A DNA stretch of 64,000 nucleotides from a virus. Below, piece by piece: positions 21 through 14,953 of the stretch (the first letter of the stretch is position 1; the number at the start of each line of letters is the position of its first letter). A program made the position numbers and the translations under genes. The stretch lies in the IMG/VR virus record IMGVR_UViG_3300007511_000019. One strand, written 5' to 3'. A model generated the notes under the pieces. The model saw only the letters and a program-made list of their open reading frames with translations, did not search any database and was not told the DNA's origin.

Positions 21-488
21 TTGCTAGACAAGGTTACGGCCAGCAACGTGCACTGGACGGCATACGTTATGCCCCGCAATGCCTGGGAAGGTATTAAGGC
101 GATTCTATACGAGTACGAGCGGAACTTCCTCGACGGGCGACACTATTCCAAGCGACCCCATGAGCACATCCGAACCTTCATGCGAGGATTGGTGCAGAAC
201 GCCGTGGCTCCGCGTGGTCCCCGACCCTTTACGGCTGGCACTTGGTGCGGTCTAGGGGCGGAAATGCTTCAACGAGGCAGCAAATGGCCGAGCGGGCAAG
301 ACGCCTGTACGGCCCTTGCCTGCTTCAACAAAGGATTATGCAAAGTGCATACGGTGGTCAACCGCGTGCAATACACTGGTCGCCATGGAATCCACGGCAC
401 TGACCAGAATTGGAAGGCATGGGGCTACGACGATGTCAAGCTTGACGTCTTCCCCGACGATACTGACCGCAAGGAATTTACGGCATGA
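21..488 (+). CDS. hypothetical protein, possibly truncated at the 5' end by the window edge
   Basis: The ORF is open from the window start with a + strand codon pattern consistent with its neighbours. No recognisable motifs were found. Confidence 0.3.
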   Translation: MLDKVTASNVHWTAYVMPRNAWEGIKAILYEYERNFLDGRHYSKRPHEHIRTFMRGLVQNAVAPRGPRPFTAGTWCGLGAEMLQRGSKWPSGQDACTALACFNKGLCKVHTVVNRVQYTGRHGIHGTDQNWKAWGYDDVKLDVFPDDTDRKEFTA

Positions 489-1525
489 CGACCAGAGCAT
501 TATTGACAGGTGTCGGCGGATTCATCGGGTCGCACACCGCCCAGTGGATTTTGGAACATACCGACTGGGACCTGGTCGGAATCGATAGCTGGCAACTCCG
601 ACATCGAAGCAGCCCGTCGCGACTGCAGGCCGTTCAAAAAAACGTAACACCAGAGCAATGGGATCGTCTCAAGCTAATGCAATGGGATTTATCCCACGAA
701 TTCACAACCCCATTCCGTAACGAACTATTTGACGCCGGACCGATTGACTACTGGATTAACATGGCCAGCGATAGCCATGTTGCTCGCTCTATTGACCGCC
801 CAGGGGCTTGCTGGCTGAACAACGTACACCTGGTCTACAACATGTTGGAACTGGCTCGCGTTGGCAAGCCGCGAGTTTTTATACAGGTTAGCACTGACGA
901 GGTTTACGGCGACTCCGGCTGGAGTGGGCCTGGTCACGCAGAGTGGTCTTCAATGCTGCCTAGCAACCCTTACGCAGCAAGCAAGGCAGCTCAAGAGGCT
1001 CTTGCCACATCTTACTGGCGAACGTACAACGTTCCCGTGGTAATCACCAATACCATGAACGCAGTAGGTGAGTGGCAAGATCCAGAGAAATTCTTGCCAA
1101 TGGTTATCAACAGGCTTACCAACGACAAACCAATCGTGCTGCACGGTGAGTCGGATAACAAACTGGCTAGGCGAGTTTGGCTCGACGCAAAAAACATGGC
1201 GGCGGCACTAGTCTATATCTGTAAACAGGGCCCACCGACTGCTTTCCGGCACCCAGAAGACCGCCCCGATCGATTTCACATAATCGGAGAGACTGAGCTT
1301 AATGTAGGCGAGCTTGTGCACAGAGTGGCGGGCAAGCTAGGTGTGGTCGCCAAAACACGACTGGTACACGGCGACACTGTTCGACCCGGATACGATCGCC
1401 GATACGCACTGCAAGACAACTTATTGCGAGCGAGCGGGTTTAACTACCCGTTCGAACTAGACACAACACTAGACCGTATCATCGAGTGGGTACGGGCGAA
1501 TCCTAACTGGATTTATGAGGACTGA
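485..1525 (+). CDS. NAD-dependent epimerase/dehydratase (NDP-hexose 4,6-dehydratase-like SDR)
   Basis: The N-terminal Rossmann motif is TGVGGFIGSH. A YxxxK-like catalytic region (YAASKAAQE) is present. Length and layout match dTDP-glucose 4,6-dehydratase / UDP-sugar epimerase family enzymes. Confidence 0.75.
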   Translation: MTTRALLTGVGGFIGSHTAQWILEHTDWDLVGIDSWQLRHRSSPSRLQAVQKNVTPEQWDRLKLMQWDLSHEFTTPFRNELFDAGPIDYWINMASDSHVARSIDRPGACWLNNVHLVYNMLELARVGKPRVFIQVSTDEVYGDSGWSGPGHAEWSSMLPSNPYAASKAAQEALATSYWRTYNVPVVITNTMNAVGEWQDPEKFLPMVINRLTNDKPIVLHGESDNKLARRVWLDAKNMAAALVYICKQGPPTAFRHPEDRPDRFHIIGETELNVGELVHRVAGKLGVVAKTRLVHGDTVRPGYDRRYALQDNLLRASGFNYPFELDTTLDRIIEWVRANPNWIYED

Positions 1526-1527
1526 TT

Positions 1528-2154
1528 ATGAGCAACCCCTATGTAGTGGTTGAAGAGTTTGAGCGAGAGGTGGCCAAGTACTGCGGTGCCCCTTATGCGG
1601 TGGCAGTCGATAGTTGCACCCACGCCCTCTTTCTCTGCTGCAAACACGAACACGTAGACAAACAACCTTACATCAAAATTCCGAAGCGGACCTATGTGTC
1701 TGTACCTTGCGAGATCATTCATGCAGGCGGCCGCGTCCGCTTCGCCGACTGGACCTGGTCTGGTGAATACCAGCTTGGTGACACCTGTATTTGGGATTCG
1801 GCCAAGAGATTCACCAGCGGCATGTTCGTACCTGGTCGTATGCAATGCCTGTCCTTCCACTTCTCCAAAATCCTCAACGCCGGTCGCGGTGGTATGATTC
1901 TTCACGACGATCCGGACGCCGATCGGTGGCTCCGTGAAGCTCGCTTTTCGGGACGACATCCGGAGGTGCCACTACGAGAGGATGATATCGAAATGGTGGG
2001 CTGGCACTACACGCTCGACCCTGTCTTCGCAGCAGCAGGCCTTCTACGGCTGAGTCGTTTGCCGGATTACAATGCCGATCAACAGGAAATCTACCCAGAC
2101 CTCTCTCAATTTGCGTGCTTCCAGGGGATGACCGATGAAGTTTCAGCGAGTTAG
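1528..2154 (+). CDS. compact DegT/DnrJ/EryC1/StrS-like PLP-dependent sugar aminotransferase/dehydratase (208 aa)
   Basis: FEREVAKYCGAPYAVAVDSCTHALFL matches the N-terminal DegT block. SFHFSKIL matches the PLP-lysine block (SFHxxK). GWHYTLDPVFAAAGLLRL matches the C-terminal Y-N-L block. The protein is about 170 aa shorter than canonical members. Confidence 0.55.
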   Translation: MSNPYVVVEEFEREVAKYCGAPYAVAVDSCTHALFLCCKHEHVDKQPYIKIPKRTYVSVPCEIIHAGGRVRFADWTWSGEYQLGDTCIWDSAKRFTSGMFVPGRMQCLSFHFSKILNAGRGGMILHDDPDADRWLREARFSGRHPEVPLREDDIEMVGWHYTLDPVFAAAGLLRLSRLPDYNADQQEIYPDLSQFACFQGMTDEVSAS

Positions 2155-2692
2155 CATGGCTATGGGAATTGAGGGGCTGACAACAGTCAAAGAACTCGAA
2201 TTCCTATATGACACGATTCTAAACGAGGTTCCAATTATCGGGTTGGTGGTAGAGCTAGGAACCTTCAAAGGCCGCTCCACCGCCGCTATTTGCGGAGCTG
2301 TAGTCGATCGACCTGGTCACCTATTTGTGATCGGCATCGATCATTTCAAGATGCAGCACCACGGCAAGAATGACCTGTGGACTACCCACAACAACCTGGC
2401 GGCACTGGGGTACTTTCCCGGACTTATGCGAGCCGAATCCACCAAACCTCAGCCCTCCATCAAACAAGTCTCAGCACTGATCATCGATACCGATCACAAG
2501 GCGTCGGTCCTAAACAAAGAGCTAGATGAGTGGCTGCCTAAGATCGTCGATGGTGGTGTGATCATCTTGCATGACTACGGTAGTGCTAAATGGCCCGAGA
2601 TCACCGACGTGGTAGACCAGAGGCTAACCAACAGCTCTGACTGGGAACTTCTCGGCCTGGCCGGGATGATGGTCGCTTTTAGAAAGCTATAA
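2135..2692 (+). CDS. class I SAM-dependent methyltransferase, TylF/MycF-like (macrocin-O-methyltransferase family)
   Basis: The motif GLVVELGTFKGRST resembles the TylF-family SAM-binding glycine-rich block. Downstream acidic residues are present (IDTDH). Confidence 0.55.
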   Translation: MKFQRVSMAMGIEGLTTVKELEFLYDTILNEVPIIGLVVELGTFKGRSTAAICGAVVDRPGHLFVIGIDHFKMQHHGKNDLWTTHNNLAALGYFPGLMRAESTKPQPSIKQVSALIIDTDHKASVLNKELDEWLPKIVDGGVIILHDYGSAKWPEITDVVDQRLTNSSDWELLGLAGMMVAFRKL

Positions 2693-2693
2693 C

Positions 2694-3545
2694 ATGACCG
2701 ACTACCGTTTGCCCGAGGGCAACGCTGAGTTCTGGGAACAACGTATCCAGAAACATGCCAACTCTTCCGACTCTTCCTGGGCTGACATTTTTGCCGTAGA
2801 GAAAGAGCGGGAGTCGTTGATCAGATGGTTGACCCCTTGGCTAACCCCCTACCCGATCACACTCGAGCCTACGCGGGCGTCTGTGATCCGACAAATCGAC
2901 TCATTTCTAGACGCTGGCTGCAACAACGGGCACTCTACTGCGGTTTACCGCAAGAATTTTCCCGAAATTGATTTTTACGGCTGTGATCTAAACCAGCAAG
3001 CGATCGATATAGCCTCAGCCGATTGCCCCAACTACTTCCAGCACGACGTTTGCGAACCCTTTGATCGGCAATGGGACGCCGTGTATACGTCTCGCGTTCT
3101 CTGTAACCTAGGCACTCGAGCCAGACAACATCAGGCGATCAAGAACCTAGCCGATGCAAGCCGCAAGCAGCTGATATTGCAGGAGCCTATTGGCGAGGGG
3201 TTCCGTACGCTGAATGCATTTCGAGTTGAGGTCGGGCTACCTGCGTTACAGATGCCGGAGCAAAATCTCTATCTTAATGGCGAGTTGACAACAAAGTGGC
3301 TACATGACCTAGGCTTTCGCCTGCTTGCTAGGCCATACGACAACCACAGCACCTACTTCGCTATCACCCGCGTTCTCAAGGACAAGTTGAACGTACCTGT
3401 TGCTGGGCAGGCATACACTTCTCAAATCAATAAGCTCGCCGCGTTACTGCCCAGCGTTGGCCAGTTTAGTCCTCACCGGTTTATGGTGTTTTACAATGAC
3501 CGCGAAACTGACGATGGGGTTGCTGACACACCGTCGGCCCAATAA
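2694..3545 (+). CDS. class I SAM-dependent methyltransferase
   Basis: Motif I is LDAGCNNGHS, post-I is YGCDLN, and motif II is DAVYTSRVL. Confidence 0.6.
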   Translation: MTDYRLPEGNAEFWEQRIQKHANSSDSSWADIFAVEKERESLIRWLTPWLTPYPITLEPTRASVIRQIDSFLDAGCNNGHSTAVYRKNFPEIDFYGCDLNQQAIDIASADCPNYFQHDVCEPFDRQWDAVYTSRVLCNLGTRARQHQAIKNLADASRKQLILQEPIGEGFRTLNAFRVEVGLPALQMPEQNLYLNGELTTKWLHDLGFRLLARPYDNHSTYFAITRVLKDKLNVPVAGQAYTSQINKLAALLPSVGQFSPHRFMVFYNDRETDDGVADTPSAQ

Positions 3546-4161
3546 CGTACGACGCGTTGTGAACAGTGTAGCAGCCCAAAGCTGTTCACCGGCTATCTGG
3601 ATGTGGAACAACTCTCCTGACAAGCTTCCTAGCGACCTTGTTGCTAGGTGCGATACGATTATTCGTAGCAGCCGCAATCTGCGGTGCGGAGCTTGGGCCA
3701 GCATGATGGCTCTTTGTGACACCGAGTTCGTTGGCAAAATTGACGACGACCTATCGCTGGCCGATCCGGCAGTCTTGCAGGATTGTTTGGGCTTCTTGGC
3801 CAAGCAGGACGACGATGTCATTATCGGGTCTCACGGGATTGTTCTCGAACCCGACAAGACCTACCGAGAGAGCCCCGGCGTCAACCTACCTAAGGTCGAC
3901 TCGCCGGTGGACATAGTCAAAGGCAGATTTTGGATAGCCCGTAGATCCGCCTTACTCAAAGCACCATTCGGGGCGATTGCCCACGATGGCGACGTGAGCT
4001 GGCCCGGCTTCTTGGCCAACGGAAGAAAGTGTTTTCACTGCGTTCCGGGCATGCTTCACGGTCGCTTTCACAATTTACCCGAAGGAAAGGAAGCGGTGTC
4101 GAGCGGACAGGGGCATTACGAGCGGCGAGAAGTTATTCGTCGTCAATGGTTTCCTTTCTAG
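3497..4161 (+). CDS. glycosyltransferase family 2-like (start chosen at the internal ATG; the tracker ORF begins at 3400)
   Basis: LTMGLLTHRRPNNVRRVVNSVAAQS resembles the GT2 N-terminal block. There is a DXD motif (KIDDDLSL). The 3400 start would overlap the upstream methyltransferase by 145 nt. Confidence 0.45.
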
Positions 4162-4170
4162 GGCACTACG

Positions 4171-4449
4171 ATGACAGATTACGATGCACAGTTAGGGCGG
4201 CACAAGCTCGCCACCCTGAAAGCACAGGATCGAATAAAGCGGCGTTGCCAAGCAATGCATGCAACCATGCAGTCGATCATTGACAATCTTGTAGACGGCT
4301 CTGATACTCGCGAAATACTATACAGTTCCCTGCGAAAGATCCAGGAGTCTGCCGATATGCTTTACGAAGAAGCTTGCTACTACCATACGCCTCGCCTTGA
4401 GTTGCGAGTGGCCAAACTCGAAACCATTATCGACGGACTGATCCAATGA
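4171..4449 (+). CDS. hypothetical protein
   Basis: The ORF is 92 aa and is coupled to the next gene by an ATGA overlap at 4446. Confidence 0.4.
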   Translation: MTDYDAQLGRHKLATLKAQDRIKRRCQAMHATMQSIIDNLVDGSDTREILYSSLRKIQESADMLYEEACYYHTPRLELRVAKLETIIDGLIQ

Positions 4450-4943
4450 ACGCTTTCACTCTTATTCTGTTGTTCGGAGCCAGTGGTCACGGCATGCCTT
4501 CGTTGATCATCCACGATCACTTCGATCGATTGGAGATCAACCATGTGTATGACGATGCTGGCCGTTGGCAGCTGACCCAGTTGCTGTGCTGTGACTTCAA
4601 AGAGATCTACCTGGACGCGAAGCAGCGGGAATACCTGGACGGCCCGCTTTGGTATCAGAAAAAGAATGGCCAGTTACCGCGAAGATATGTGGTACAGCAC
4701 TGGCATATGATCAGGGTCGACAAACCGGCTCTGTATCCGCACAAAGCCAAATCTGGGCTGTACACGATGATTTATCACGACAACAGCGGCGTGTTACGGA
4801 AGGTCACTGCACCAGTGTACGAAGAGACCCACACTGCTTTCGACCCCGAAGTCTGGGAACGTAGGATTTGGAGCAAGGATTCGAAACGTAGGGGCCTATC
4901 TGACGTGATTACTAAAGTAGCCCGCACGGCTACTTCCAACTGA
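4446..4943 (+). CDS. hypothetical protein
   Basis: The ORF is 165 aa and is ATGA-coupled to the preceding gene. Confidence 0.4.
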   Translation: MNAFTLILLFGASGHGMPSLIIHDHFDRLEINHVYDDAGRWQLTQLLCCDFKEIYLDAKQREYLDGPLWYQKKNGQLPRRYVVQHWHMIRVDKPALYPHKAKSGLYTMIYHDNSGVLRKVTAPVYEETHTAFDPEVWERRIWSKDSKRRGLSDVITKVARTATSN

Positions 4944-4982: not shown

Positions 4983-5459
4983 ATGTACGAGACCCAAACA
5001 AACGTGTCTTCTGGCGTGAACGTGTATCTGTCCGGACCTATTACCGGTGAGGGCTACGACACGGTCACTGACTGGCGAAAAGAAACATCTGACGTTCTAG
5101 CGGGCTACGGAATTACAGCCCTGTCGCCGTTACGACACAAACACTACTTGGCAGGCGAGACTGAGATTGCTCCCTCGTACGAGGAGCACACGATGTCTAA
5201 GCAAAAGTCCATCACTAACCGCGATCGGTGGGATGTGATGCGGTCCGACGTAGTGTTTGTTAACTTGCTCAACACCAATCGCATCTCAATCGGCACGGTG
5301 ATGGAAATCGCCTGGGCTGATGCTTTCCGTAAACCAATCGTCTTGGTGATGGAGCAGGACGGGATGCATTCTCACCCACTCCTCGAGGAGGTCTGTGCGT
5401 TTCATATCGAGACGCTAGAAGAAGGTATCGAGGTTTTGAAGGGCCTTCTGGTCCCGTAA
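4983..5459 (+). CDS. nucleoside 2-deoxyribosyltransferase-like / SLOG-fold protein
   Basis: The N-terminal VYLSGPITG motif is present. The C-terminal block DVMRSDVVFVNL...ISIGTVMEIAWADAFRKPIVLV matches the NDT/LOG-like signature (D..D....SD....DSGT.fElG.A.A.gKPv). Confidence 0.5.
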   Translation: MYETQTNVSSGVNVYLSGPITGEGYDTVTDWRKETSDVLAGYGITALSPLRHKHYLAGETEIAPSYEEHTMSKQKSITNRDRWDVMRSDVVFVNLLNTNRISIGTVMEIAWADAFRKPIVLVMEQDGMHSHPLLEEVCAFHIETLEEGIEVLKGLLVP

Positions 5460-5467: not shown

Positions 5468-6292
5468 ATGTTTGAACGATTTACCGACAGAGCACACCAT
5501 AGCTTCACCGAAGCCAAGCGTTTTGCCAAACGCCTGCGGCACGAGTACATCGGCGTAGAGCATGTCGTGTACGGTCTGCTCAAAAGCGGTGGCATTGCCC
5601 AGACCGTGCTCAACAACGCTAATGTCTTTGCCGGAGATGTCGAACGATTTATGGCTGCTCGGCTTGGCGACGGTCCTAGCTATATAGTCTATGTGGACAG
5701 CCTACCGAGGACTCCTCGCTGTAAACGTGTGACGGACAAGGCGATAACCTACTCAAGTGACGTGGATGGTCTGTACGTAGGAACTGAGCATCTGCTACTG
5801 GCTATACTGGACGAAGAAGACAGTATGTGGCTTGATCTGCTTAGCAAAGTAGGCTCACGGACTGTTGAGCAGCTTCGCATGGACGTTAGACTGTCGCCCA
5901 GTTCAGCGAAGCCGGTCACCTACATGTTTGGCGTATTTGACCCATTTCACGTGGGTCATTACATGCAGTTGGAGCGTGCTGCCGAGTTGGGCAGCAGCCT
6001 GATAGTCGGCGTCCAGTCTGACGCTGCCGTCGAGAACGAGCATGGAAACCCGCCGCTCTTGACACTTTCATCGCGTAGGCGGCTGCTTAACGCGTTGCCT
6101 GTTGTAGATGCAACGGTAACCTATACCGAACCCGACCAGTCCAGTGTACTTAGCGTTTTAGCTCCGAGCATCTTTGTCTGCGACCCGCTTTACGATCAGG
6201 AGCAAACTCTGGCATACTGCAAAGACAATAACATCCGCGTTGAGCGAATGTTGTCGGAATCGGTGCCATGTAATCCTCGTTCGATGTCGTAA
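5468..6292 (+). CDS. fusion of a Clp N-terminal repeat domain and a cytidylyltransferase-like nucleotidyltransferase
   Basis: Residues 1-140 contain two Clp_N repeats (YIGVEHVVYGLLKSGGIAQTVL and YVGTEHLLLAILDEEDSMWLDLL). The C-terminal half has GVFDPFHVGHYMQLERAAELGSSLIVGV, matching the (H/T)xGH motif of glycerol-3-phosphate cytidylyltransferase / RfaE domain II enzymes. Confidence 0.65.
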   Translation: MFERFTDRAHHSFTEAKRFAKRLRHEYIGVEHVVYGLLKSGGIAQTVLNNANVFAGDVERFMAARLGDGPSYIVYVDSLPRTPRCKRVTDKAITYSSDVDGLYVGTEHLLLAILDEEDSMWLDLLSKVGSRTVEQLRMDVRLSPSSAKPVTYMFGVFDPFHVGHYMQLERAAELGSSLIVGVQSDAAVENEHGNPPLLTLSSRRRLLNALPVVDATVTYTEPDQSSVLSVLAPSIFVCDPLYDQEQTLAYCKDNNIRVERMLSESVPCNPRSMS

Positions 6293-6619: not shown

Positions 6620-6931
6620 ATGAACAAACCAAAACAAGACGAACTCAATCGAATGGCCATGTGCACTACACGTGGGCTAATCGAGGCTGTACTACACCGG
6701 TTTGCAGAAAACCTGGGGCCAGATTTAGCCGCTCCGGAGACCCCCGACTCCCTCCGCAAACTCGAGAAGTCTATTCAACAAGGAGCCGAATTCGTAGACC
6801 GGTTAGAGAACTCTTTCCAGGTCAACCCACAAGGTACCCATTGTCGTTTTACGCTACACTATCCTGGCACCGACCTGGATTTTGACTTCGAAGGGAAGCT
6901 CGTGGTCAACTCGCTCCCTAGCTCTGAATAA
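6620..6931 (+). CDS. hypothetical protein
   Basis: The ORF is 103 aa with an AT-rich leader and no obvious Shine-Dalgarno sequence. Confidence 0.35.
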   Translation: MNKPKQDELNRMAMCTTRGLIEAVLHRFAENLGPDLAAPETPDSLRKLEKSIQQGAEFVDRLENSFQVNPQGTHCRFTLHYPGTDLDFDFEGKLVVNSLPSSE

Positions 6932-7021: not shown

Positions 7022-7567
7022 ATGACCACACGACCCCAGATGATTTATGTCGGTACGGAAGAGAATGCCAAGGCCGGGATCCTGACCCACGGCATTTTGG
7101 AAACCACAATGGAGAAGGCCAACGCAGCCGTTGAGGCACTGCAGGCCCTTCGACAATCCGTCAACAACCTTACGTTGTGTTGCGAGGCCACAGACCTCGC
7201 GGCCTGTCGGGACATCATCGACGGTGCCATCGACGAGATCAACGCCATGGCCGACGCGACGTCAACGACACTGGCGACAGCACTCGCGGCGGAGAGCCCG
7301 CATCGGCAAGGCCTAGCGGAACTAATGACCGAACGGCTTGGCGGACTCATGACGATGCTCAACAGCGGCGGCGGATCGAACACGGGCAGAAGCCTGAGTC
7401 TGGCTGAACTCTTTGGCCCGGGTACCGTGATCGAAGAACCTACTGCCCAGGACGGCTCATCGCAGCTTTCGCCAACCATGTCTTCGGAAACCTCCGAAGA
7501 TGGTGCGTCCTCGGACACTAGCGACCAAGCGGTTGACCCCAACCCTGCCAACCCGGTTTCGTCGTAG
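7022..7567 (+). CDS. hypothetical protein with an acidic, disordered C-terminus
   Basis: The ORF is 181 aa. An RBS (GGAG) lies upstream. It is followed by a strong intrinsic terminator. Confidence 0.4.
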   Translation: MTTRPQMIYVGTEENAKAGILTHGILETTMEKANAAVEALQALRQSVNNLTLCCEATDLAACRDIIDGAIDEINAMADATSTTLATALAAESPHRQGLAELMTERLGGLMTMLNSGGGSNTGRSLSLAELFGPGTVIEEPTAQDGSSQLSPTMSSETSEDGASSDTSDQAVDPNPANPVSS

Positions 7568-7589
7568 CCGGTCCGGCGGTCACAACTAA

Positions 7590-7627
7590 CACCCCTGGAT
7601 TGTAAGAAATCCAGGGGTGTTTTTCTT
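7590..7627 (+). terminator. rho-independent terminator
   Basis: Perfect 11-bp stem (CACCCCTGGAT / ATCCAGGGGTG) with an 8-nt loop, followed by TTTTTCTT. Confidence 0.75.
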
Positions 7628-7631
7628 ACAT

Positions 7632-8078
7632 ATGACCAGCACAATATTGCCTCTACCTCCCTTGTTGCCGAATTTCAGGCGAGAGTTGCATCTCGACGAT
7701 GTTGCGGTAATCTTACCTGGGTTTCAAAACTACATAGACGCGGAATGGCGTGTACTGTACTCTGCAGCCATGAACGTACAGCTGCGTACGGAGTTACCTT
7801 TCTTCGACTTTACGCAGCTGTATCCAGGCACTCGGCAGTTTCGTCACTTCTGCCGAGTTATTGGTAACATAGACACCGCTTCCGCCGAGTATCAGTACGC
7901 GGCAAAAGACGCTGACAAGGTAATGGAAGATTACCGAACAGCAATGCTCGAAGCTGCCGCTGGCCAACGCCTTTCGTTTATGCAAGAGGCGTTCGACCGA
8001 ACACGGTTGGTCGGTAATATAGCTCGAGCGTACGGTAAGCTCCAAGCACTGTACGCAGACGCCCGTCTCGATCTGTAG
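7632..8078 (+). CDS. hypothetical protein (start moved to the ATG at 7632, because the tracker GTG at 7617 lies inside the terminator)
   Basis: ORF in the same frame, 148 aa. Confidence 0.35.
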   Translation: MTSTILPLPPLLPNFRRELHLDDVAVILPGFQNYIDAEWRVLYSAAMNVQLRTELPFFDFTQLYPGTRQFRHFCRVIGNIDTASAEYQYAAKDADKVMEDYRTAMLEAAAGQRLSFMQEAFDRTRLVGNIARAYGKLQALYADARLDL

Positions 8079-8137: not shown

Positions 8138-8968
8138 ATGACTGATCCCAGTTTTGCGGTATTTGACGAAGACCGATTTCCTCCCACGAGTAACCTCGCC
8201 GAAGCATATCAGCAAGAGGTTACCTACGGATACGAGGTAATGAAGGAACGATCGGTAGTGATCGCTGGTCTCGCTCGTAACATCGAAAAGGCAGTCCCGA
8301 TAACAACCTCCCGCATTGAGCGGCTAGGAGAGCTGTTTCAGGACTACCGTGTGGTGCTTTACGAAAACGACTCTCGCGACCGTACGCCTGAATTGTTACA
8401 GGCTTGGGCTGATTCCAACTCCAGCGTAGACCTTACGTCTGAACGCCGGGGCGATCCTGTGAATCCGCAAATCCGGTGTCTAAACCGGGCAGCCCGTATG
8501 GCTCACTACCGAAATCAGTGCCGACTCAAAATTGCGGAGAAGTACCCTGACGTAGATAACGTCATCGTACTTGATACCGACCTGACTGGCGGGTGGAGCT
8601 ACGACGGCATCGCCCACACCTTTTCCAAGACCGAGGCATGGGACTTCGTTGGAAGCAACGGGATCATGTTCAAACACTTTAACGGCCAGAACAACTACCC
8701 AGTCTACTTCGACGTCTGGGCATTTCGCTGGCAAGGCACCTATCAACCTTGCTTTGCACCAAAGATCAATCCCCGACGCTGGAACCGGGGCGAAGCTTTA
8801 GTTCCGCTCTACTCCTGCTTCGGCGGGTTAGGGGTTTATCGTGTAGAGGCAATGTTGCGGTGCTCGTACGACGGTTCGGACTGCGAGCATGTCCCATTTC
8901 ACCGCAAAATGCGGGAAGCCGGAATGGGCCGTATTTTCATGAACCCGAGCCAAATCGTACTCTATTGA
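8138..8968 (+). CDS. putative glycosyltransferase (GT-A-like)
   Basis: The protein is 276 aa with a DXD-like motif (VIVLDTDLTG). Its layout loosely resembles polysaccharide glycosyl/mannosyl transferases. Support is weak. Confidence 0.3.
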   Translation: MTDPSFAVFDEDRFPPTSNLAEAYQQEVTYGYEVMKERSVVIAGLARNIEKAVPITTSRIERLGELFQDYRVVLYENDSRDRTPELLQAWADSNSSVDLTSERRGDPVNPQIRCLNRAARMAHYRNQCRLKIAEKYPDVDNVIVLDTDLTGGWSYDGIAHTFSKTEAWDFVGSNGIMFKHFNGQNNYPVYFDVWAFRWQGTYQPCFAPKINPRRWNRGEALVPLYSCFGGLGVYRVEAMLRCSYDGSDCEHVPFHRKMREAGMGRIFMNPSQIVLY

Positions 8969-9118: not shown

Positions 9119-9721
9119 GTGCAACCACTACCAGGTGAATCTCTCCCGGAAGGCGAGATTCGTCGTCGACTACTTTCGATGCTGCGGGACGCACACAAGT
9201 GGTTATTTGTAAGCCCATCCGAGAAATCCTTCCTCACCGTCCTACGTATAATACAACCGCTGGTTGACGTGGACGATGAGGAAGTTGCGGCTGAGGCCGT
9301 TGACGCGTACACTATTGAAACCTCTGAGGGCGGCACGATCTACCTGCTGGCCTTCCCGAAGGAACTTCTTACACCTGCTAAGCTACTTCAGCGACTACAG
9401 GCTGTAAACGAACTTCCACCTGACTTAGGATCAGCCGACTGGATCGAGCGAGTTGAGCACGCAAACGTTATTACTCCGACGTGTCCGCCACAAGAGTTGG
9501 CGGCGATGCTGTCCTGGCTCTCTAAGCTCGTATCCGCCGAAGTCGAGATCAATGCCATGGCTACCTACCATGCAGAAAACAGCAGTGATCTGTCTGACGA
9601 AATCTTCAAAGCCTTAGGCGTAGCGGGACTCTCGGCCCTACACGAGGAGACCGGGTTTGAACTTTTTGACAAGCCTGAGGAGCGAGCACACCCGTACTAC
9701 GCACCGTTTAGCGATAACTAG
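9119..9721 (+). CDS. hypothetical protein
   Basis: ORF of 200 aa. Confidence 0.4.
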   Translation: MQPLPGESLPEGEIRRRLLSMLRDAHKWLFVSPSEKSFLTVLRIIQPLVDVDDEEVAAEAVDAYTIETSEGGTIYLLAFPKELLTPAKLLQRLQAVNELPPDLGSADWIERVEHANVITPTCPPQELAAMLSWLSKLVSAEVEINAMATYHAENSSDLSDEIFKALGVAGLSALHEETGFELFDKPEERAHPYYAPFSDN

Positions 9722-9764: not shown

Positions 9765-10307
9765 ATGACTACACAGTGTCAGCGGTACCTGGAGCTAACT
9801 GTAAGTTCCGAAGGAGTAATTCACCCGTCCGTAGGTGACTGCAGCTATTGTGGCAGCATACGACCACTGATCGCGGTCATGGACACGATCAGATACGAGG
9901 CCGGTAGGTGGACAGCACGTTGTCCCAATTGCAGTCGCGAACGTCAGGAAATCAGTGTCCTAAACTTCTTCGACGACAACGCCTGGTCTGTTGATCTGTC
10001 AAAACTTCGACAGTCGCTGCTGGACGAGTTTCGTCGGCGACAGAAACCGATCCCGTTTCCTGACCGTACCGGTACCGATACTTACCGCCGGTCGCGTCGG
10101 TTACGAAACCCTGGGCGTAACGGTGATCCGCCAGCATCGCCCCACAATTACTACGAACACGGTTCTGCCATATTCTCCCAGCCGTTTCACGACGAAATGT
10201 CCGGACGGACATACAGTGCGGGTTGTCAAACCTGCGGTTGCGAGCGGTGTCGTTTGTCTCGAGATCGCATCGCTCAAAGGATGTGGGAGGAAGAAGGGTT
10301 AAGGTAA
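9765..10307 (+). CDS. hypothetical zinc-ribbon protein (start at the internal ATG with RBS AAGGAAGGA)
   Basis: Cysteine pairs CSYCGS...CPNCS and a C-terminal CQTCGCERC are present. Confidence 0.4.
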   Translation: MTTQCQRYLELTVSSEGVIHPSVGDCSYCGSIRPLIAVMDTIRYEAGRWTARCPNCSRERQEISVLNFFDDNAWSVDLSKLRQSLLDEFRRRQKPIPFPDRTGTDTYRRSRRLRNPGRNGDPPASPHNYYEHGSAIFSQPFHDEMSGRTYSAGCQTCGCERCRLSRDRIAQRMWEEEGLR

Positions 10308-10600
10308 TGTTCATTCTGATTCGCTTGCTGATTGTTTTGGGGCTAGTCGCGGCCATCGTGTGGTTAGCCACTAAGCTGACGCATAGCCCATGGTTTGGAC
10401 GCCTTGTTGACGTATTTCTGGGGCACAAGCCCACTGACAGTGAATTGACTGGCAACATCGACGAAGCTCGAGCCGACCTTGCGAACAGGGTCGAGGCTAA
10501 CCGTCTTGAAGCCGAACGTCTTGACGCATCGCGTAGACGTCTGGAGGCACACGGCCTTGCAGACAAACAAGACCATGCAAATCCTGGCAAACCCAGGTAG
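10307..10600 (+). CDS. small membrane protein with one TM helix and a coiled-coil tail (start at the internal ATG)
   Basis: MFILIRLLIVLGLVAAIVWLA forms a TM segment, followed by a charged helical tail. The gene sits immediately upstream of the SPFH gene. Confidence 0.45.
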   Translation: MFILIRLLIVLGLVAAIVWLATKLTHSPWFGRLVDVFLGHKPTDSELTGNIDEARADLANRVEANRLEAERLDASRRRLEAHGLADKQDHANPGKPR

Positions 10601-10613
10601 GAGCAATTCACCC

Positions 10614-11960
10614 ATGGAACGTAAGCACTTTGCCTACGCAGCCGCCGCCGTTCTCGGCGTCGTCGCACTGATTGTTTTGTTTGGAAATATGGGGTACAAC
10701 CGCGACGACCAGTGGCAAATCCACCAGTCTGTTACGGGCAAGATCACGGTGATTGACCGTGGCGGTTACTACCTCAACATGTTCGGTACCGTAACTGACT
10801 ACCCGCGTTACCGTGACTCGTTCTACTCGGCCCACCACAAGGAAGGCGGTGAAGAGGACGATTCGATTCGGTGCACCTTTAACGACGGCGGCACCGCTAA
10901 GGTGTCGGTGTACGTTAGGTTCTCCACTCCCCCAGAGGAGGACCAACGTCGAGCATTCCACCGTGTGTATTCTGCGAACATTGACAACACCTCGCAGGCG
11001 GTACGGGCTCACCTTGTTAACTGCGTTAAAGCGGCGGCACCGCTAATGTCTGCTAGCGAGAACCAGGCGTCACGCAAAGCCGAGTTTGCTCAAGTCATTC
11101 AGAACATGATGCAAGACGGCCTATACGTGATGCGACAAACAAGAGTTACTCTCGAAGATCAGGCGTTGATCGAAGTAGAGGCCAACGCGGACGGTAAGGC
11201 TCCCGTTCTTCGCGAGAAGCCTACCGAGGTTATGGCGACAGAGATCGTGCGAGATACCGAGACAGGTAAGCCGCTGATCGCTGAAGCATCGCCACTGACC
11301 AAGTACGGTATCGGGGTTGAGCAATTCTCGGTTACCGATATTGACTATGATCCAGAGACCCTCAAACAGTTCGCTGCGAAGAAAGAATCGTTCTTGCTGG
11401 CGGAACAGGCTAAGGCCCAACGACAGCAGTTCGTACAAGAGAAGCTGAAGATCATCGCTGAAGGTGAATCTGAAGTTGCCCGTATCGAGCAAGAGGGAAA
11501 CAAAGAGAAGATGGCCGCGACAGTATCCGCCGAGAAAGAGGCGGCTGTGGCAATCATCAACAAAGATAAAGCCGTGACCGAGGCTACACAAAAGGTCGAG
11601 GTGGCCCAGCAAGAAAAGCTGGAAGCCGACACCCGATTTGAGATTGCCGAAGTCCAGGTCAAGATCGCGGAAGAGGATAAGAAGGCCGAGATTGCCGTCG
11701 CCGAAGCCAAACAAAAGGCTCTGGAGATCGGCGGTGCTCTGTCGGAAGAAGAACGCGTTCTTGCAGAGATCGCTGCCGAACGCGATGCTAAGGTCGCCAC
11801 AGCCCTTGCTGGGTTAAAGGTACCAGGCGTCGTCATCGTCGGCGGTAAAGGTAGTGACTCAGGTGGTGGCGGAGAAAATCTCCAAAGCAATCTGATCAAC
11901 CTTACACTGTTGCGAGCCCTGGGGATCATTCCCAAAGACGCGACGAAGCCCGTCGAGTAA
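10614..11960 (+). CDS. SPFH/band-7 (flotillin/YqiK-like) membrane protein (start at ATG 10614 with RBS AGGTAGGAG)
   Basis: An N-terminal TM segment (AAAAVLGVVALIVLF) is followed by an SPFH-like globular region. The long C-terminal E/A/K/Q-rich coiled coil (AEQAKAQRQQFVQEKLKIIAEGESEVARIEQEG...) is typical of flotillin/HflKC-type proteins. Confidence 0.65.
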   Translation: MERKHFAYAAAAVLGVVALIVLFGNMGYNRDDQWQIHQSVTGKITVIDRGGYYLNMFGTVTDYPRYRDSFYSAHHKEGGEEDDSIRCTFNDGGTAKVSVYVRFSTPPEEDQRRAFHRVYSANIDNTSQAVRAHLVNCVKAAAPLMSASENQASRKAEFAQVIQNMMQDGLYVMRQTRVTLEDQALIEVEANADGKAPVLREKPTEVMATEIVRDTETGKPLIAEASPLTKYGIGVEQFSVTDIDYDPETLKQFAAKKESFLLAEQAKAQRQQFVQEKLKIIAEGESEVARIEQEGNKEKMAATVSAEKEAAVAIINKDKAVTEATQKVEVAQQEKLEADTRFEIAEVQVKIAEEDKKAEIAVAEAKQKALEIGGALSEEERVLAEIAAERDAKVATALAGLKVPGVVIVGGKGSDSGGGGENLQSNLINLTLLRALGIIPKDATKPVE

Positions 11961-12051: not shown

Positions 12052-12453
12052 ATGCCAACAACCAACCAACTGGTTCGCAAGAACCGCAGAAAGCCAAGGA
12101 ACAAGTCCAAGCACCGGCTGATGCAGGAAAACCCGCAGCGGCGAGGAACAGTGCTAAAGGCTTGGGTGATGTTGCCGCGTAAGCCCAACTCAGCTAACCG
12201 CAAGGTGTGTCGGGTCCGGTTTGCCGATGGCAACGAGGCGACGTGCCACATTCCGGGCGAAGGCCACAACATCGTGGAGCACAACACCGTGCTCGTGCGA
12301 GGCGGCGGCCCACCTGATCTGTCCGGCGTTAAGTACCGTGTTGTTCGCGGTACGCTTGACTGTATCGGCGTTACCGAAGGTGCTAACAAGCAGCGGCGAA
12401 ACCAAGGCCGCAGCAAGTACGGTTCGCCAAAACCGTCCAAAGCAAAGAAGTAG
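12052..12453 (+). CDS. rpsL: ribosomal protein uS12 (S12) homolog, bacterial type
   Basis: The match to bacterial S12 is near full length: [14 protein letters not shown]..., [51 protein letters not shown], and SKYG. An RBS (AGGAG) lies 9 nt upstream. Confidence 0.85.
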
Positions 12454-12610
12454 ACGATCGTGGTGTTCTGGCGAGTGATTTTTCATGGAGGAGCCCTCAT
12501 CGCTTTGGGACGGAGTCCCAACAAGGATCAGGGATTATCCAGTGGCGAGGGCAGTCGCCGCCGAATTGGAGTTGGCTCTTGCCAGAACACCTTTTTTACA
12601 TGGAGGGCAC

Positions 12611-13147
12611 ATGACCACCATACCTGAGTTGAAACCTTGCGATTGCGGCGTCAAGCCTGTGGTGTTTGGCGAAGCCCTGATGCTGAGTATCCGCTGCCCG
12701 ACCTGCAGTGGCCAATTTATTATGGGAGTAGATGTTCCAGATTTACGTGATCGCTGGAATAACGGCGAACGCGGGGTTGTGGCTAACTACAACCGCCCGG
12801 CCCGGCCTAACGTGGTCGATCTCGACGAAACATCGGATTACCCGCCCCTCAAGCCTCTACCCAAGCTGGGCATAGTTTGCACTATCGACCGAGTTAAGCC
12901 ACCCACCTTCTGGGATCGGCTGTGTGCCTCATTTTCCCAGGGGGGAAGATGTTACCTCGAGTTCGCTGCTTTGCATCCTTCCGCGTTTGTAATCGAGTGG
13001 GAACCAAAGTTTCGGGTATTATTCGGGCATCGAACTTACCTGGACGACCAAGGCCAACCATTCGCTACGAGAAAAGCTGCTGAGCAGTACGAAGCCGTCC
13101 TGATTAGGCGGCGTTGCTTCGAGGTGCAGGATAGCCGCCGCTCCTAA
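12611..13147 (+). CDS. Lar-family-like zinc-ribbon protein (start at ATG 12611 with RBS GGAGGG)
   Basis: ELKPCDCGVKP...IRCPTCSGQF...DLRDRWNNG resembles the Lar restriction-alleviation family signature (LKPCPFCG...C..CG...W). Confidence 0.4.
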   Translation: MTTIPELKPCDCGVKPVVFGEALMLSIRCPTCSGQFIMGVDVPDLRDRWNNGERGVVANYNRPARPNVVDLDETSDYPPLKPLPKLGIVCTIDRVKPPTFWDRLCASFSQGGRCYLEFAALHPSAFVIEWEPKFRVLFGHRTYLDDQGQPFATRKAAEQYEAVLIRRRCFEVQDSRRS

Positions 13148-13219
13148 TCGGAGAGGTGGCTAGGGCGAGGGAGGGCTCTATCCGAACCACTCCCCCTCGC
13201 TTTAGCTATTAGCTGCTGC

Positions 13220-13247
13220 TTGACAAATTGCTCTTGACAGGGATAAT
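13220..13247 (+). promoter_or_regulatory. sigma70-like promoter: TTGACA-16 nt-GATAAT, with a second TTGACA copy
   Basis: TTGACA is at 13220-13225, a second TTGACA at 13234-13239, and GATAAT at 13242-13247. The preceding hairpin (13185-13220) resembles a terminator. AGGAG lies 7 nt before the ATG at 13286. Confidence 0.5.
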
Positions 13248-13285
13248 CTAAAGGAGAACCGGTTCATCCTCCTTAGGAGCAGCGA

Positions 13286-14020
13286 ATGTCCAACATCCCG
13301 TTAGTGACTGCTGTAATGGTCACCGGGAAGGATCCTGAAAGAGCACCGTATGCTCTGGCGGCAGTACAGAGCTTCTTGTCGCAAACCTGGCCCAATAAGG
13401 AATTGGTCATCATCAATGACGGCAAAGTGCCGTTGTTACCGTTCCTGTCTACCAGTTTACCCCCTGGTACCGATATTAGAGAATCGACATTTCCGTCAGG
13501 AGCTTACACACTAGGCGATCTTCGTAACAAAGGCTTAGAGAAAGCTGACGGCGAATGGGTTATACAGTGGGACGATGACGACTGGTACCATCCTTGGCGA
13601 ATCGCTATGCAGATGGACGAGGCCGTTGACGACCACGCCGTTTTGCTAAAGTGTCAAGTCCGATACAGTTTTCCTAACGATTCTGCGAAAGCTTTTCGGT
13701 GGCCTTACAAACCCAACCCGGCCATTCCCGGCACCGTTCTGCACCCCAACAAACCAGGCCTGGCCTATCGTTCTGAGCGTAAAGCTGAGGACGACCACTT
13801 TTTGCAAGACCACTTCAAGGACAAAATGATCGTTCTTGATAATGCAGCCAACCCGCACCTCTACTTGCGGTTTTTCACAGGACACAACACGTGGGACCAT
13901 TTCCACGTCATGGGTCTGCACGCTAACCCGGACCATAAAGGTAGGTGGACCTTACCAGAAGAATCTTCTGATTACCTTCGTACGGTCATTGACACCCACT
14001 ACAAATTTGCGGTTAGCTAA
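13286..14020 (+). CDS. glycosyltransferase family 2
   Basis: VTAVMVTGKDPERAPYALAAVQSFLSQTWPNKELVIINDG matches the GT2 N-terminal block, and there is a DXD motif (QWDDDDWYH). Confidence 0.65.
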   Translation: MSNIPLVTAVMVTGKDPERAPYALAAVQSFLSQTWPNKELVIINDGKVPLLPFLSTSLPPGTDIRESTFPSGAYTLGDLRNKGLEKADGEWVIQWDDDDWYHPWRIAMQMDEAVDDHAVLLKCQVRYSFPNDSAKAFRWPYKPNPAIPGTVLHPNKPGLAYRSERKAEDDHFLQDHFKDKMIVLDNAANPHLYLRFFTGHNTWDHFHVMGLHANPDHKGRWTLPEESSDYLRTVIDTHYKFAVS

Positions 14021-14953
14021 ATGCCAGAATCCATCCAACAATATCTGATCACTGGAGCCAACGGCCAGCTAGGGATGGAACTGGTGCGGCAGCTGGGCGA
14101 GGAGTCTGTAATAGCCAAGCCCCGCGAGACCTTCAACGTATCCGACATGACGAAGGTCAAGGAACTGATTCCTTTGCTGCGACCAGCCGCTGTTATCCAT
14201 ACCGCTGCTATGACGGATTGGGTTACTGCCGAACACAAGCGGAATGATTGCTGGCAGACTAACGTTCAGGGGACGGACAATCTCGTTAAGGTATGTGCCT
14301 TGCACGGGATTCCTTTTGTACATATCAGTTGTGACAGTGTTTTCGGCTCCAACCGCGACCCTAGGCCGCGTACGGAGACCGATCCGGTGGTGCCTTGCCA
14401 CCAACTGGCTATTACGAAAGCATGTGCTGAGCACAGCGTGCTCCGACTTGGGCAATGTGTTTGCCCCGAGTTTTGGCAAAAAGGCTTCCGGTACTGGGTT
14501 ATTCGCACAGGACTTCTGTACGAACGCCCATGGCGACAAAACCAGAACCTCGTCAGCCGGATACTTCGTCAAGCGGATAACCGCCGTGGCGAAGAGGTGT
14601 CCCTTGCTTCCGACATGATCTTCACTCCGACATACGCTCCGCACCTGGCCAAGGCTCTGGTCTGGTTGGTGCGGCACTACCGTGAAATGCCGTCGGGTGT
14701 ATACCACGTTGGCAATCTAGGTCACTGTTCTGCCTACCAGTTTGGGCAAGAAATCTCGTCAAATTCACGACGTCCGCTAAAGATCCGGTCAACTACACGC
14801 GAACAGATGTCGCAGGCCTTCGGTGGCTGGGACGCTAAGCTCCTGCCATACCATACGGCTCTCGACTGTAGCAAATTCGCTGATGTAGTACCTATTCCTC
14901 TGCCGGATTGGCGGGAAGGTGTCGAGCAATTTTCGCTTGACTACGAGAGTTAA
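14021..14953 (+). CDS. RmlD-like NAD(P)H-dependent 4-ketoreductase (dTDP-4-dehydrorhamnose reductase family)
   Basis: The N-terminal LITGANGQLGMEL motif, followed by VIHTAAMTDWVTAEHKRNDCWQTNVQGTDNLVKVCALHGIPFVHISCDSVFG, matches the RmlD substrate-binding-domain family. Confidence 0.65.
   Translation: MPESIQQYLITGANGQLGMELVRQLGEESVIAKPRETFNVSDMTKVKELIPLLRPAAVIHTAAMTDWVTAEHKRNDCWQTNVQGTDNLVKVCALHGIPFVHISCDSVFGSNRDPRPRTETDPVVPCHQLAITKACAEHSVLRLGQCVCPEFWQKGFRYWVIRTGLLYERPWRQNQNLVSRILRQADNRRGEEVSLASDMIFTPTYAPHLAKALVWLVRHYREMPSGVYHVGNLGHCSAYQFGQEISSNSRRPLKIRSTTREQMSQAFGGWDAKLLPYHTALDCSKFADVVPIPLPDWREGVEQFSLDYES

Follow-up and report, generated by a model that had tools for sequence, protein, structure and literature searches.

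A partly host-dependent glycan gene set, possibly serving virion protein, in an uncultured jumbo phage

The IMG/VR virus record IMGVR_UViG_3300007511_000019 supplied a stretch of 64,000 nucleotides, called the window below, which stems from an uncultured clade of jumbo phages with a multisubunit RNA polymerase. Its first part carries genes of sugar-nucleotide synthesis, methylation and glycosyl transfer. A 4,6-dehydratase, an aminotransferase, two methyltransferases and glycosyltransferases would together form a coherent recipe for a methylated 4-amino-4,6-dideoxyhexose. We read this set as a partly host-dependent glycan toolkit whose acceptor would be a phage protein, most likely a virion protein, and we give this reading a probability of about 0.4.

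An original prediction, made from the letters of the window, had seen in 485-14953 an island of ten genes of sugar biosynthesis, tailoring and transfer. All ten gene-family calls were reproduced in profile, structure-sequence and fold searches, and profile searches reassigned none of them. The further proposal that these genes together make and transfer a methylated deoxy or amino sugar keeps its logic for the first cassette, but the presumed reductase, the cytidylyltransferase and the nucleoside 2-deoxyribosyltransferase (NDT)-like protein do not fit into it.

A gene set for a methylated amino sugar

The genes on which the reading is built are the following.

1-488 (open reading frame, ORF, 21-488), plus strand: GT-A-like glycosyltransferase, C-terminal 162 codons of a protein of 296 amino acids (aa) that begins ~400 nt before the first position of the window
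485-1525, plus strand: RmlB-type nucleoside-diphosphate (NDP)-hexose 4,6-dehydratase, an extended short-chain dehydrogenase/reductase (SDR); Pfam Epimerase 2.7e-39, GDP_Man_Dehyd 3.5e-38
1528-2154, plus strand: compact DegT/DnrJ/EryC1-type pyridoxal-phosphate (PLP) enzyme, 208 aa; Pfam DegT_DnrJ_EryC1 2e-22
2135-2692, plus strand: S-adenosylmethionine (SAM) methyltransferase, Methyltransf_24 / TylF clan; passes Methyltransf_24 with 48.8 bits
2694-3545, plus strand: second class I SAM methyltransferase (Methyltransf_12/11/25 in Pfam)
3496-4161, plus strand: GT2-like GT-A glycosyltransferase with a DDD motif; Pfam Glycos_transf_2 23.3 bits, exactly the cut-off
8138-8968, plus strand: GT-A fold glycosyltransferase with a DTD motif; in Pfam only a sub-threshold CAP59 match, GT-A by its model
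13286-14020, plus strand: GT2 glycosyltransferase with a DDDD motif; Pfam Glycos_transf_2 1.7e-13; abuts the next gene
14021-14953, plus strand: RmlD-like SDR of a divergent subfamily; RmlD_sub_bind PF04321 2.1e-51 over the full length
16199-16651, plus strand: GNAT acetyltransferase (profile match)

The product of 485-1525 keeps the GxxGxxG motif (LTGVGGFIGSH, residues 7-17) and both the catalytic STDEVYG and YxxxK motifs (VSTDEVYGD and PYAASKAA). Its best NCBIfam model is dTDP-glucose 4,6-dehydratase, at 169.8 bits and thus below the 365-bit equivalog cut-off of TIGR01181, and its best matches in the PDB are dTDP-glucose 4,6-dehydratases in eight cases out of eight, with full-length alignments. 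It is a divergent member of the RmlB family and may recognise dTDP, UDP or GDP as the nucleotide.

The next gene encodes a much shorter protein than usual for its family. The best NCBIfam models for it are PseC and LegC. Compared with the two-domain architecture of DegT enzymes (~360-400 aa), the protein has no C-terminal domain at all and a large domain that is short of ~40 residues; the family profile is shortened at ~95-175, and all its positions after ~263 are missing. The Schiff-base lysine K114 (in SFHFSK) is aligned with Lys186 of GDP-perosamine synthase, and both K114 and the PLP-N1-binding aspartate D90 are invariant in 47 aligned homologues. An AlphaFold (AF2) model reached a predicted local distance difference test score (pLDDT) of 96. 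By Foldseek, this model corresponds to the large domain of sugar aminotransferases (perosamine synthase, ArnB, PseC), with a TM-score on the query (TMq) of ~0.7, and it covers only ~40% of the target chains (TM-score on the target, TMt, ~0.4).

We considered that the gene could be a truncated pseudogene or fragment, and rejected this because of the conserved 192-251-aa family, the invariant catalytic residues and the confident model. The compact family gave 2,681 matches, the best 120 of which are all 192-251 aa long with ~50-57% identity. A search of BFVD folds for viral compact DegT proteins returned one match of 316 aa, the rest being full-length or fused, and we found no compact form among the solved structures.

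The company of compact DegT genes was also examined. On contig L014, an RmlB-like gene is directly followed by a compact DegT gene, as in the window (72% and 70% identity, respectively), and the pair lies beside a 917-aa methyltransferase-GT1 fusion. On L017 the compact DegT belongs to a set of shortened PseB-like, CTP_transf_3, GNAT and NeuB proteins; on the chromosome of Runella sp. SP2 it is found with Hexapep, BKACE and MBOAT genes, on a 670-kb contig with GT9-methyltransferase, GT34 and PhyH genes, and in Flavobacterium phage immuto inside a glycan cluster. In these five cases, the association of the DegT family with NDP-sugar 4,6-dehydratase and glycan genes is also seen for its compact form. 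On the basis of the conserved fold, the conserved residues and this sugar-gene company we take the 1528-2154 product to be a probable NDP-4-keto-sugar aminotransferase, active in a minimal form.

The L017 set deserves a mention of its own. At L017:3309-10489, on a phage-like contig, a 209-aa PseB-like SDR, the compact DegT, a 197-aa CTP_transf_3 protein, a GNAT and a 225-aa NeuB-like protein are encoded, which looks like a miniaturised nonulosonic-acid pathway; its proteins are all much shorter than their bacterial counterparts. A pseudaminic or legionaminic acid pathway in the window, hinted at by the PseC and LegC matches, by a pseudaminic acid methylase match and by L017, was rejected, the window having no NeuB, PseB-type dehydratase, PseG or CTP_transf_3.

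The first methyltransferase (2135-2692), for which gene callers place the start at 2158 or 2164, had been called TylF-like; the family holds at the level of Methyltransf_24, but the TylF model reaches 16 bits against a cut-off of 23, so that the narrower name is weak. The protein is probably a sugar O-methyltransferase. The second one (2694-3545) could methylate either N or O, and matches the model of a 'pseudaminic acid biosynthesis-associated methylase' weakly (4.6e-7, under the cut-off). A PDB search with both methyltransferases gave no informative relative. The GNAT protein, a gene kept in the related phage contig L018, is a candidate N-acetyltransferase for the amino sugar.

Among the window ORFs scanned, we found no RmlA-type nucleotidyltransferase, RmlC/cupin isomerase or sugar kinase (no NTP_transferase, no dTDP_sugar_isom). 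A Pfam search at permissive E values for a hidden RmlA, RmlC or ketoisomerase gave nothing credible in the ORFs at 4171-4449, 4446-4943, 6620-6931, 7022-7567, 7617-8078, 9119-9721, 9765-10307 and 12485-13147. Since RmlA and RmlC were not found, the pathway must start from host NDP-glucose, and rhamnose cannot be made by the canonical route. We thus propose the following sequence of steps. The RmlB-type enzyme, judged by its intact motifs, would convert host NDP-glucose (most likely dTDP-glucose) into NDP-4-keto-6-deoxyglucose, and the compact DegT protein would aminate this to NDP-4-amino-4,6-dideoxyhexose. The two SAM methyltransferases, and possibly the GNAT, would modify the sugar itself or the glycan once it is complete. 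Five soluble GT-A glycosyltransferases (1-488, 3496-4161, 8138-8968, 13286-14020 and partners) could then build a short hetero-oligosaccharide in the cytoplasm.

Glycosyltransferases, the RmlD-like protein and the layout of the genes

A DxD-type motif is present in all four GT-A proteins considered here (DDD, DTD, DDDD and EDD). The EDD motif belongs to the protein truncated at the window edge, whose full gene is found on identical metagenome contigs (L001:9114-10004). It lies in an N-terminal Rossmann-like part, and the protein has four weak but concordant sub-threshold Pfam matches (MGAT2 6e-4, Glyco_tranf_2_3 1e-3, GNT-I and GT2). The GT2 assignment proposed at 3497-4161 is retained at the Pfam threshold, with the DDD motif, but the start has to be moved: the ATG is at 3496 (50-nt overlap with the preceding gene) or at 3514 (32 nt). 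Gene callers on the identical contigs start this gene further downstream, which would remove the first beta-alpha unit.

The 8138-8968 protein was modelled by AlphaFold with 39 homologues (pLDDT 95.7) and has a GT-A fold. Foldseek matched it to COLGALT1, LH3, PcManGT, RmlT and ppGalNAc-T, with E values from 5e-10 to 1e-6 against GT25, GT2 and GT27 structures, so that protein O-glycosyltransferases are among its best fold matches. Its residues D146 and D148 are conserved, and orthologues of 48-56% identity occur in the related phage contigs L019, L100 and L101. An orthologue of the 13286-14020 protein (50% identity) directly precedes the RmlD-like gene in L019, and L018 has a different GT-A-like protein at this position.

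The RmlD-like protein had been labelled a 4-ketoreductase. It keeps the NAD(P) motif (ITGANGQLG) and the catalytic-site Lys; the rest of the SDR triad is altered, with Cys for Thr in SCDSVF and Leu for Tyr in HQLAITK. At the Tyr position, the 15 members of the subfamily have Y, L, T, F, I or E, with Tyr in about half of them. The Leu leaves the 4-ketoreductase label unsupported for the window copy, and a role as canonical 4-ketoreductase seems unlikely. The subfamily comprises 19 clusters (P0121-P0139; 37-97% identity), all from uncultured metagenome contigs, keeps the NAD motif and the Lys, has Cys instead of the catalytic Thr, shares a conserved 12-aa Cys-rich insertion (LRLGQCxCPExW) and is separated by a sharp drop from canonical RmlDs (at most 34% identity). 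In both L018 and L019, the RmlD-like gene comes after a GT-A gene. This pairing suggests a role tied to that transferase, and the protein may be a nucleotide-sugar-binding partner of the adjoining GT2. We found no biochemical characterisation of either the minimal DegT or this Tyr-less RmlD-derived protein.

Compared with the RmlABCD pathway of dTDP-L-rhamnose, the window thus has an intact RmlB homologue and a protein with the RmlD fold and NAD motif. However, RmlA and RmlC were not found in the window ORFs scanned, the RmlD-like protein has lost Tyr and Thr, and its gene lies 12.5 kb from the RmlB-like gene in a different unit; co-occurrence of the RmlD-like gene with RmlA, RmlB and RmlC, as in that pathway, is not seen. 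The set is not a rhamnose pathway.

The following features lie between these genes and determine how the span is read.

4983-5459, plus strand: NDT / DNPH1-like protein; Nuc_deoxyrib_tr PF05014, 41.5 bits, above the cut-off of 28.8
5468-6292, plus strand: ClpC N-domain (residues 1-135, complete) fused to a small HIGH-motif nucleotidyltransferase; Clp_N and CTP_transf_like
7022-7567, plus strand: protein of 181 aa whose C-terminal tail is acidic and rich in Ser/Thr (43% S+T over 30 residues)
7588-7621, plus strand: terminator-like hairpin with a 14-bp stem and a T tract, closing the first unit
10479-11960, plus strand: large SPFH / Band-7 protein with a long Glu/Lys/Ala-rich coiled tail; 52-55% identity in L100 and L101
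11990-12021, plus strand: terminator-like hairpin 3' of the SPFH gene
12052-12453, plus strand: full-length homologue of ribosomal protein uS12; Pfam 2.9e-23, and 5e-38 to solved bacterial uS12
13220-13247, plus strand: promoter-like, near-consensus sigma-70-like site (TTGACA-16-GATAAT), upstream of the GT2 and RmlD-like pair

The six genes of 1-4161, from the truncated GT-A to the GT2-like gene, are joined by overlaps or by gaps of 1-2 nt: an overlap of 4 nt at 485-488, where the stop of the first gene and the dehydratase ATG share ATGA, gaps of 2 nt at 1525/1528 and of 1 nt at 2692/2694, and overlaps at 2135-2154 and 3496-3545. This packing argues for one expression unit. The island proposed at 485-14953 is kept for this part, which extends upstream to the truncated GT-A gene. 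It cannot be kept for the whole: the 14.5-kb span is not contiguous, and about half of its genes are unrelated (the SPFH protein, the uS12 homologue and family-less ORFs). With the two hairpins and the promoter-like site, the span breaks up into three or four units at least, although the site at 13220-13247 is only a consensus match whose use is uncertain in a phage with its own RNA polymerase. The 8138-8968 gene and the directly abutting pair at 13286-14953 (junction 14020/14021) belong to transcription units separate from the core cassette, and all three are part of the conserved backbone of related ~233-kb phages.

Two further genes had been counted in the sugar pathway. The nucleotidyltransferase half of 5468-6292 has the HxGH motif (FDPFHVGH) and passes TIGR00125 (50.8 bits; cut-off 27.7). 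Of the specific models, RfaE domain II scores highest, with 62.6 bits against a cut-off of 181.5, and the PDB matches are ethanolamine-phosphate, choline-phosphate and glycerol-3-phosphate cytidylyltransferases. By these matches, the enzyme is of the GCT/RfaE-II type, which acts on phospho-alcohols or heptose-1-phosphate and does not activate hexose-1-phosphates. The place given to it in the pathway is thus lost. Known GCT-type enzymes stand alone or are fused to a kinase; this one does neither. ClpC N-domains are adaptor or phospho-arginine binding modules. None of the best 150 of 1.84 billion cluster representatives matches both halves of the fusion, in a search swamped by Clp_N repeat proteins and with matches confined to the Clp_N part. 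The NDT-like product of 4983-5459 has the catalytic Glu segment (GTVMEIAWA), and its gene adjoins the sugar genes; we could demonstrate no link to them, and its membership in the pathway is given up as well. Both proteins are probably outside the hexose pathway.

It could then be asked whether the genes form one pathway at all. They might be a loose collection of horizontally acquired and partly decayed homologues, of which only the 1-4161 cassette works; the RmlD-like protein would be a non-catalytic binder, the ClpC-N fusion would act on host proteostasis and the NDT-like protein in nucleotide salvage. The lost and variable catalytic Tyr of the RmlD-like proteins, the division into several units with interspersed SPFH, uS12 and family-less genes, the unparalleled fusion whose enzyme type does not activate hexose-1-phosphates, and the fact that other huge phages share the RmlB-like gene alone are all in line with this idea. 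Nevertheless, we hold it to be distinctly unlikely. The RmlD-like subfamily is under clear purifying selection, as seen from its identities, insertion and NAD motif, and it always comes with a GT-A gene; sets of a methyltransferase and two glycosyltransferases occur in every relative examined; and the same enzyme families co-cluster with 8138 homologues at loci mostly labelled Planctomycetota.

Relatives, host and the acceptor of the glycan

All substantial ORFs of the window are on the plus strand, and the G+C content is ~54%. A 1,885-aa protein and an intein-containing 1,020-aa protein match the beta and beta' families of phage multisubunit RNA polymerases. The second of them is encoded at the following position.

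33032-36094, plus strand: RNA polymerase beta'-like subunit (Rpb1 domain 5), with an inserted intein that has Hint and LAGLIDADG homing-endonuclease domains

A virion structural protein of phrog_1645 (6.8e-92) is also encoded, and many ORFs match no family. These three observations identify the window as phage. No near-identical DNA was found in known phages, the only match being a 37-nt chance match. The RmlB-like protein is encoded with an identical sequence by 18 or more metagenome contigs, with lengths of up to 88 kb. The contigs shown stem from JGI samples and one ENA assembly, and the setting is taken to be marine; metagenomes with this phage include JGI 3300007770, 3300007760, 3300008954 and 3300007510 and ENA ERZ23498664. 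Genuine relatives were reached through the RmlD-like and glycosyltransferase proteins. One of their contigs measures 233 kb, and its protein cluster occurs in 13 index blocks, on contigs of 0.2-1 Mb, which places the window in a clade of jumbo phages. With its own RNA polymerase and no integrase in the ORFs scanned, the phage seems to be strictly lytic. The moraphage lineage was discarded as source clade, since moraphages have no RNA polymerase genes (PMC12619734), and the huge phages L006-L010 were set aside as syntenic relatives because the RmlB-like gene is all that they have in common with the window, which is uninformative.

Among the relatives L018, L019, L100 and L101, the window genes that recur are those of the 8138-like glycosyltransferase, the SPFH protein and the uS12 homologue and the pair of GT-A and RmlD-like genes. 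The 2H phosphoesterase, the GNAT and the next large gene recur there as well, and Methyltransf_24 (in L100 and L101), Methyltransf_21 and a 308-aa GT2 are encoded near the 8138-like gene. We did not find the RmlB-like and compact-DegT cassette in the stretches available of these four contigs. Taken together, this gene content argues that the glycosyltransferases and sugar methyltransferases are a trait of the clade, and that the cassette of dehydratase and aminotransferase seems to have been added to it. A peptide-chain release factor homologue (PCRF and RF-1) is encoded a few kb upstream of the 8138-like gene at L100:1873-2598 and L101:820-1539, and in related jumbo phages an adenylosuccinate synthase and an AAA ATPase adjoin the uS12 gene.

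Cellular homologues of the 8138-8968 protein (107 confirmed, 80 loci kept, 43-54% identity) are almost entirely from Planctomycetota, and complete genomes with such a gene include Singulisphaera, Schlesneria and Limnoglobus. Its neighbours there are a TylF O-methyltransferase, Methyltransf_11, GT4 and MoxR/DUF58/BatA genes; part of the lineages also have an ABC exporter or a 4,6-dehydratase. Four other phage proteins match these neighbours: the upstream GT-A protein at 1.4e-23, in a Rubripirellula locus where its homologue directly adjoins the 8138-like gene, the RmlB-like protein at 1.9e-28, the RmlD-like protein at 7.4e-22, and the first methyltransferase, which matches TylF-family neighbours at 17 genome loci mostly labelled Planctomycetota (best 1.6e-8). 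Judged by these homologues and neighbours, the genes probably stem from Planctomycetota, which would also be the probable host, with host and direction of transfer both drawn from sequence, and the phage set would mirror a surface-glycan cluster of the host. To our knowledge, almost no phages of Planctomycetota have been studied.

Such a mirror image can be explained in another way. The phage enzymes could feed or divert a Planctomycetota-type surface-glycan pathway and thereby change or mask the receptor glycan; superinfecting phages would then be kept out, or the progeny would be spared loss on cell debris. The clusters with the closest cellular relatives of the 8138-8968 protein (the 80 loci), which hold TylF, Methyltransf_11, GT4, a 4,6-dehydratase and an ABC exporter, bear the signature of an exported glycan, and the four other phage proteins match genes of these same clusters. 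The same gene-set class in jumbo phages, cyanophages included, was read in this sense by Iyer et al. 2021 (PMC7824862), and a dehydratase and DegT cassette that is not in the fetched parts of the four relatives behaves as a variable, serotype-like module would. Against it, we found no priming phosphoglycosyl transferase, flippase, polymerase, ligase, exporter or transporter in the window ORFs scanned. The phage transferases lack the terminal extensions found in the 300-350-aa cellular homologues, three of them are conserved backbone genes and not sporadic ones, and a seemingly strictly lytic phage leaves little time for surface turnover. On balance, envelope remodelling, the main rival of our reading, appears to us somewhat unlikely.

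Two of these observations are the reason for placing the acceptor among phage, most likely virion, proteins: three transferases and the RmlD-like gene belong to the conserved backbone of the clade and are not sporadic morons, and neither a priming enzyme for a lipid carrier nor a flippase, polymerase or exporter was found with them. Further support comes from the solubility of the transferases, from their being shorter than the cellular homologues, and from the precedents of Mimivirus fibril glycans and of mycobacteriophage capsid and tail-tube glycans. Ser/Thr-rich acceptor tails, sought in the window proteins, gave modest enrichments only (the C-terminal tail of 7022-7567, and 56286-57233). 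The 7022-7567 gene lies between the sugar cassette and the 8138-8968 gene, just 5' of the strong terminator-like hairpin, and its product is, speculatively, a candidate glycan acceptor.

Modification of the phage DNA was the third target proposed originally. An activated amino or methyl sugar would be placed on a hydroxymethylated base and would block host nucleases. A dCMP deaminase and the NDT-like nucleotide enzyme are encoded nearby, and the first methyltransferase matches a PHROG family that bears the label 'DNA methyltransferase'. However, we found no thymidylate-synthase-like hydroxymethylase, 5-methylcytosine dioxygenase, 5-hydroxymethyluracil kinase or DNA cytosine methyltransferase in the window ORFs scanned, and none of these enzymes among the precomputed Pfam matches of the 10 kb upstream. 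Five transferases with sugar-tailoring enzymes also exceed the DNA glycosylation systems known to us. Phage GT-A and GT-B enzymes do glycosylate DNA with diverse glycans (bioRxiv 10.1101/2023.12.21.572611), but this preprint makes no mention of dTDP, a dehydratase or an aminotransferase. In phage immuto, which has a comparable cluster, liquid chromatography-mass spectrometry (LC-MS) of the DNA gave, in the sections of PMC10516641 consulted, three canonical nucleosides and fdPreQ1, a 7-deazaguanine derivative, in place of dG, and these sections report no glycosylated nucleoside. We therefore consider DNA modification highly improbable. Among the three targets first listed, DNA would be the least likely, having no base-hydroxymethylating or oxidising enzyme nearby; virion protein and host envelope cannot be separated by sequence.

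Several points weigh against a virion acceptor or against the proposed chemistry. Both acceptor and glycan are predictions from the genes. The transferase genes are away from the structural genes (~37 kb onward), while mycobacteriophage transferases often adjoin theirs. With ~50% identity of the 8138-8968 protein to enzymes of host envelope clusters, a host surface-glycan pathway fits equally well. The first GT2 (3496-4161) is only at the Pfam threshold. With no RmlA or RmlC and with an RmlD-like protein that has no Tyr, part of the apparent pathway may not work or may serve otherwise, and the nucleotide carrier, the aminated position and the methylation sites are not readable from the sequence. 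Finally, ~75 kb was covered of a genome that probably exceeds 200 kb. The most specific form of the proposal is that ~233-kb jumbo phages, probably on Planctomycetota, autonomously coat their own virions with a methylated 4-amino-4,6-dideoxyhexose glycan by means of a ~200-aa minimal DegT without C-terminal domain and a Tyr-less, RmlD-derived glycosyltransferase partner; stated in this full form, we judge it unlikely.

Neighbouring genes and known systems

Other genes of the window and its surroundings were recorded as well.

15661-16176, plus strand: 2H-SAK phosphoesterase, kept in relatives
18730-21927, plus strand: 1,065-aa protein with a LigD 3'-phosphoesterase domain and a ligase OB domain, kept in relatives
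60376-61476, plus strand: SGNH/GDSL hydrolase domain protein (4.7e-11), among presumed structural genes

The first two may form a repair module for the healing and sealing of nucleic-acid ends, and the SGNH/GDSL protein may act as a receptor-glycan deacetylase on a fibre. Upstream of the window, the same phage contigs encode a receiver-like protein (cREC_REC) and the dCMP deaminase (L001:6810-7714), ~2.5 kb before the sugar cassette. The uS12 homologue is 52% identical to E. coli S12 in an alignment and is also found at L018:5121-5510 and L019:6459-6860. At the position of the Lys in the RVKDLPG loop of E. coli S12, a classic streptomycin/accuracy site, the window has Pro and its relatives have Arg or Gln. 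The uS12 matches in the phage collection look like bacterial contamination, and the PhiMa05 ribosomal-protein paper does not mention S12, uS12 or rpsL.

The original prediction had called such a gene set notable for this phage type. This was overstated, since RmlB-like genes are found in 228 records of phages and RmlD-like ones in 154, and comparable clusters have been described. The 'capsular polysaccharide modification systems' of jumbo phages and cyanophages (PMC7824862, section 3.4.10), with the 15-gene system of P-SSM2 as prototype, resemble the window in their paralogous NAD-dependent epimerase/dehydratase genes, HIGH nucleotidyltransferase and several glycosyltransferase families, and the window has the gene set by which they are defined (an epimerase/dehydratase, a nucleotidyltransferase of the HIGH superfamily and one or more glycosyltransferases, in a large phage). 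In both cases, function was deduced from sequence. Unlike these systems, the window has no PfkB sugar kinase and no cupin isomerase, its nucleotidyltransferase is fused to a ClpC N-domain, it adds a compact DegT and two methyltransferases, part of the set is conserved in the clade, and the host would belong to Planctomycetota and not to cyanobacteria. Phage immuto, an isolated 160-kb marine Flavobacterium phage, has ~11 kb of glycosyltransferase, methyltransferase, NDP-sugar epimerase and acetyltransferase genes together with a compact DegT of 214 aa, 40% identical to the 1528-2154 protein. Its cluster differs by a full-length WecE-type aminotransferase, by GT-B (RfaG-type) transferases and by having no RmlB-like or RmlD-like genes.

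The fibrils of Mimivirus bear 2OMeVio4NAc, made by viral enzymes of a UDP-viosamine pathway (PMC8456856, PMC10117803). The Megavirinae thus follow the same logic towards a methylated 4-amino-4,6-dideoxyhexose, with a viral 4,6-dehydratase, a DegT-type aminotransferase, an N-acetyltransferase, a methyltransferase and glycosyltransferases. Whereas the Mimivirus system is chemically proven, that of the window is seen in its genes; it belongs to a tailed phage, its aminotransferase has a minimal 208-aa form, and its dehydratase is RmlB-like (dTDP by best matches) and not specific for UDP-glucose. In mycobacteriophages, capsid and tail-tube proteins are glycosylated by phage glycosyltransferases (Freeman et al. 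2023, as cited in PMC12619734), and the modification of structural proteins by soluble phage enzymes in the cytoplasm is the mechanism that we favour here. Unlike in mycobacteriophages, we saw neither an acceptor motif nor adjacency to a capsid gene in the window. As far as we know, virion glycosylation in mycobacteriophages needs no sugar-nucleotide tailoring enzymes.

The class of genes is thus already catalogued in large phages and giant viruses, and the finding is one at the level of annotation. Its biochemically interesting details are the minimal DegT family, the Tyr-less RmlD subfamily coupled to a glycosyltransferase and the ClpC-N/nucleotidyltransferase fusion; the compact DegT family, common in metagenomes, is an attractive minimal scaffold for the enzymology of sugar aminotransferases. 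If the glycan is on the virion, virus-encoded, host-independent glycosylation, which is known to shield particles and to change their recognition, would reach marine jumbo phages, beyond giant eukaryotic viruses and actinobacteriophages, and would give a first functional handle on the viruses of Planctomycetota.

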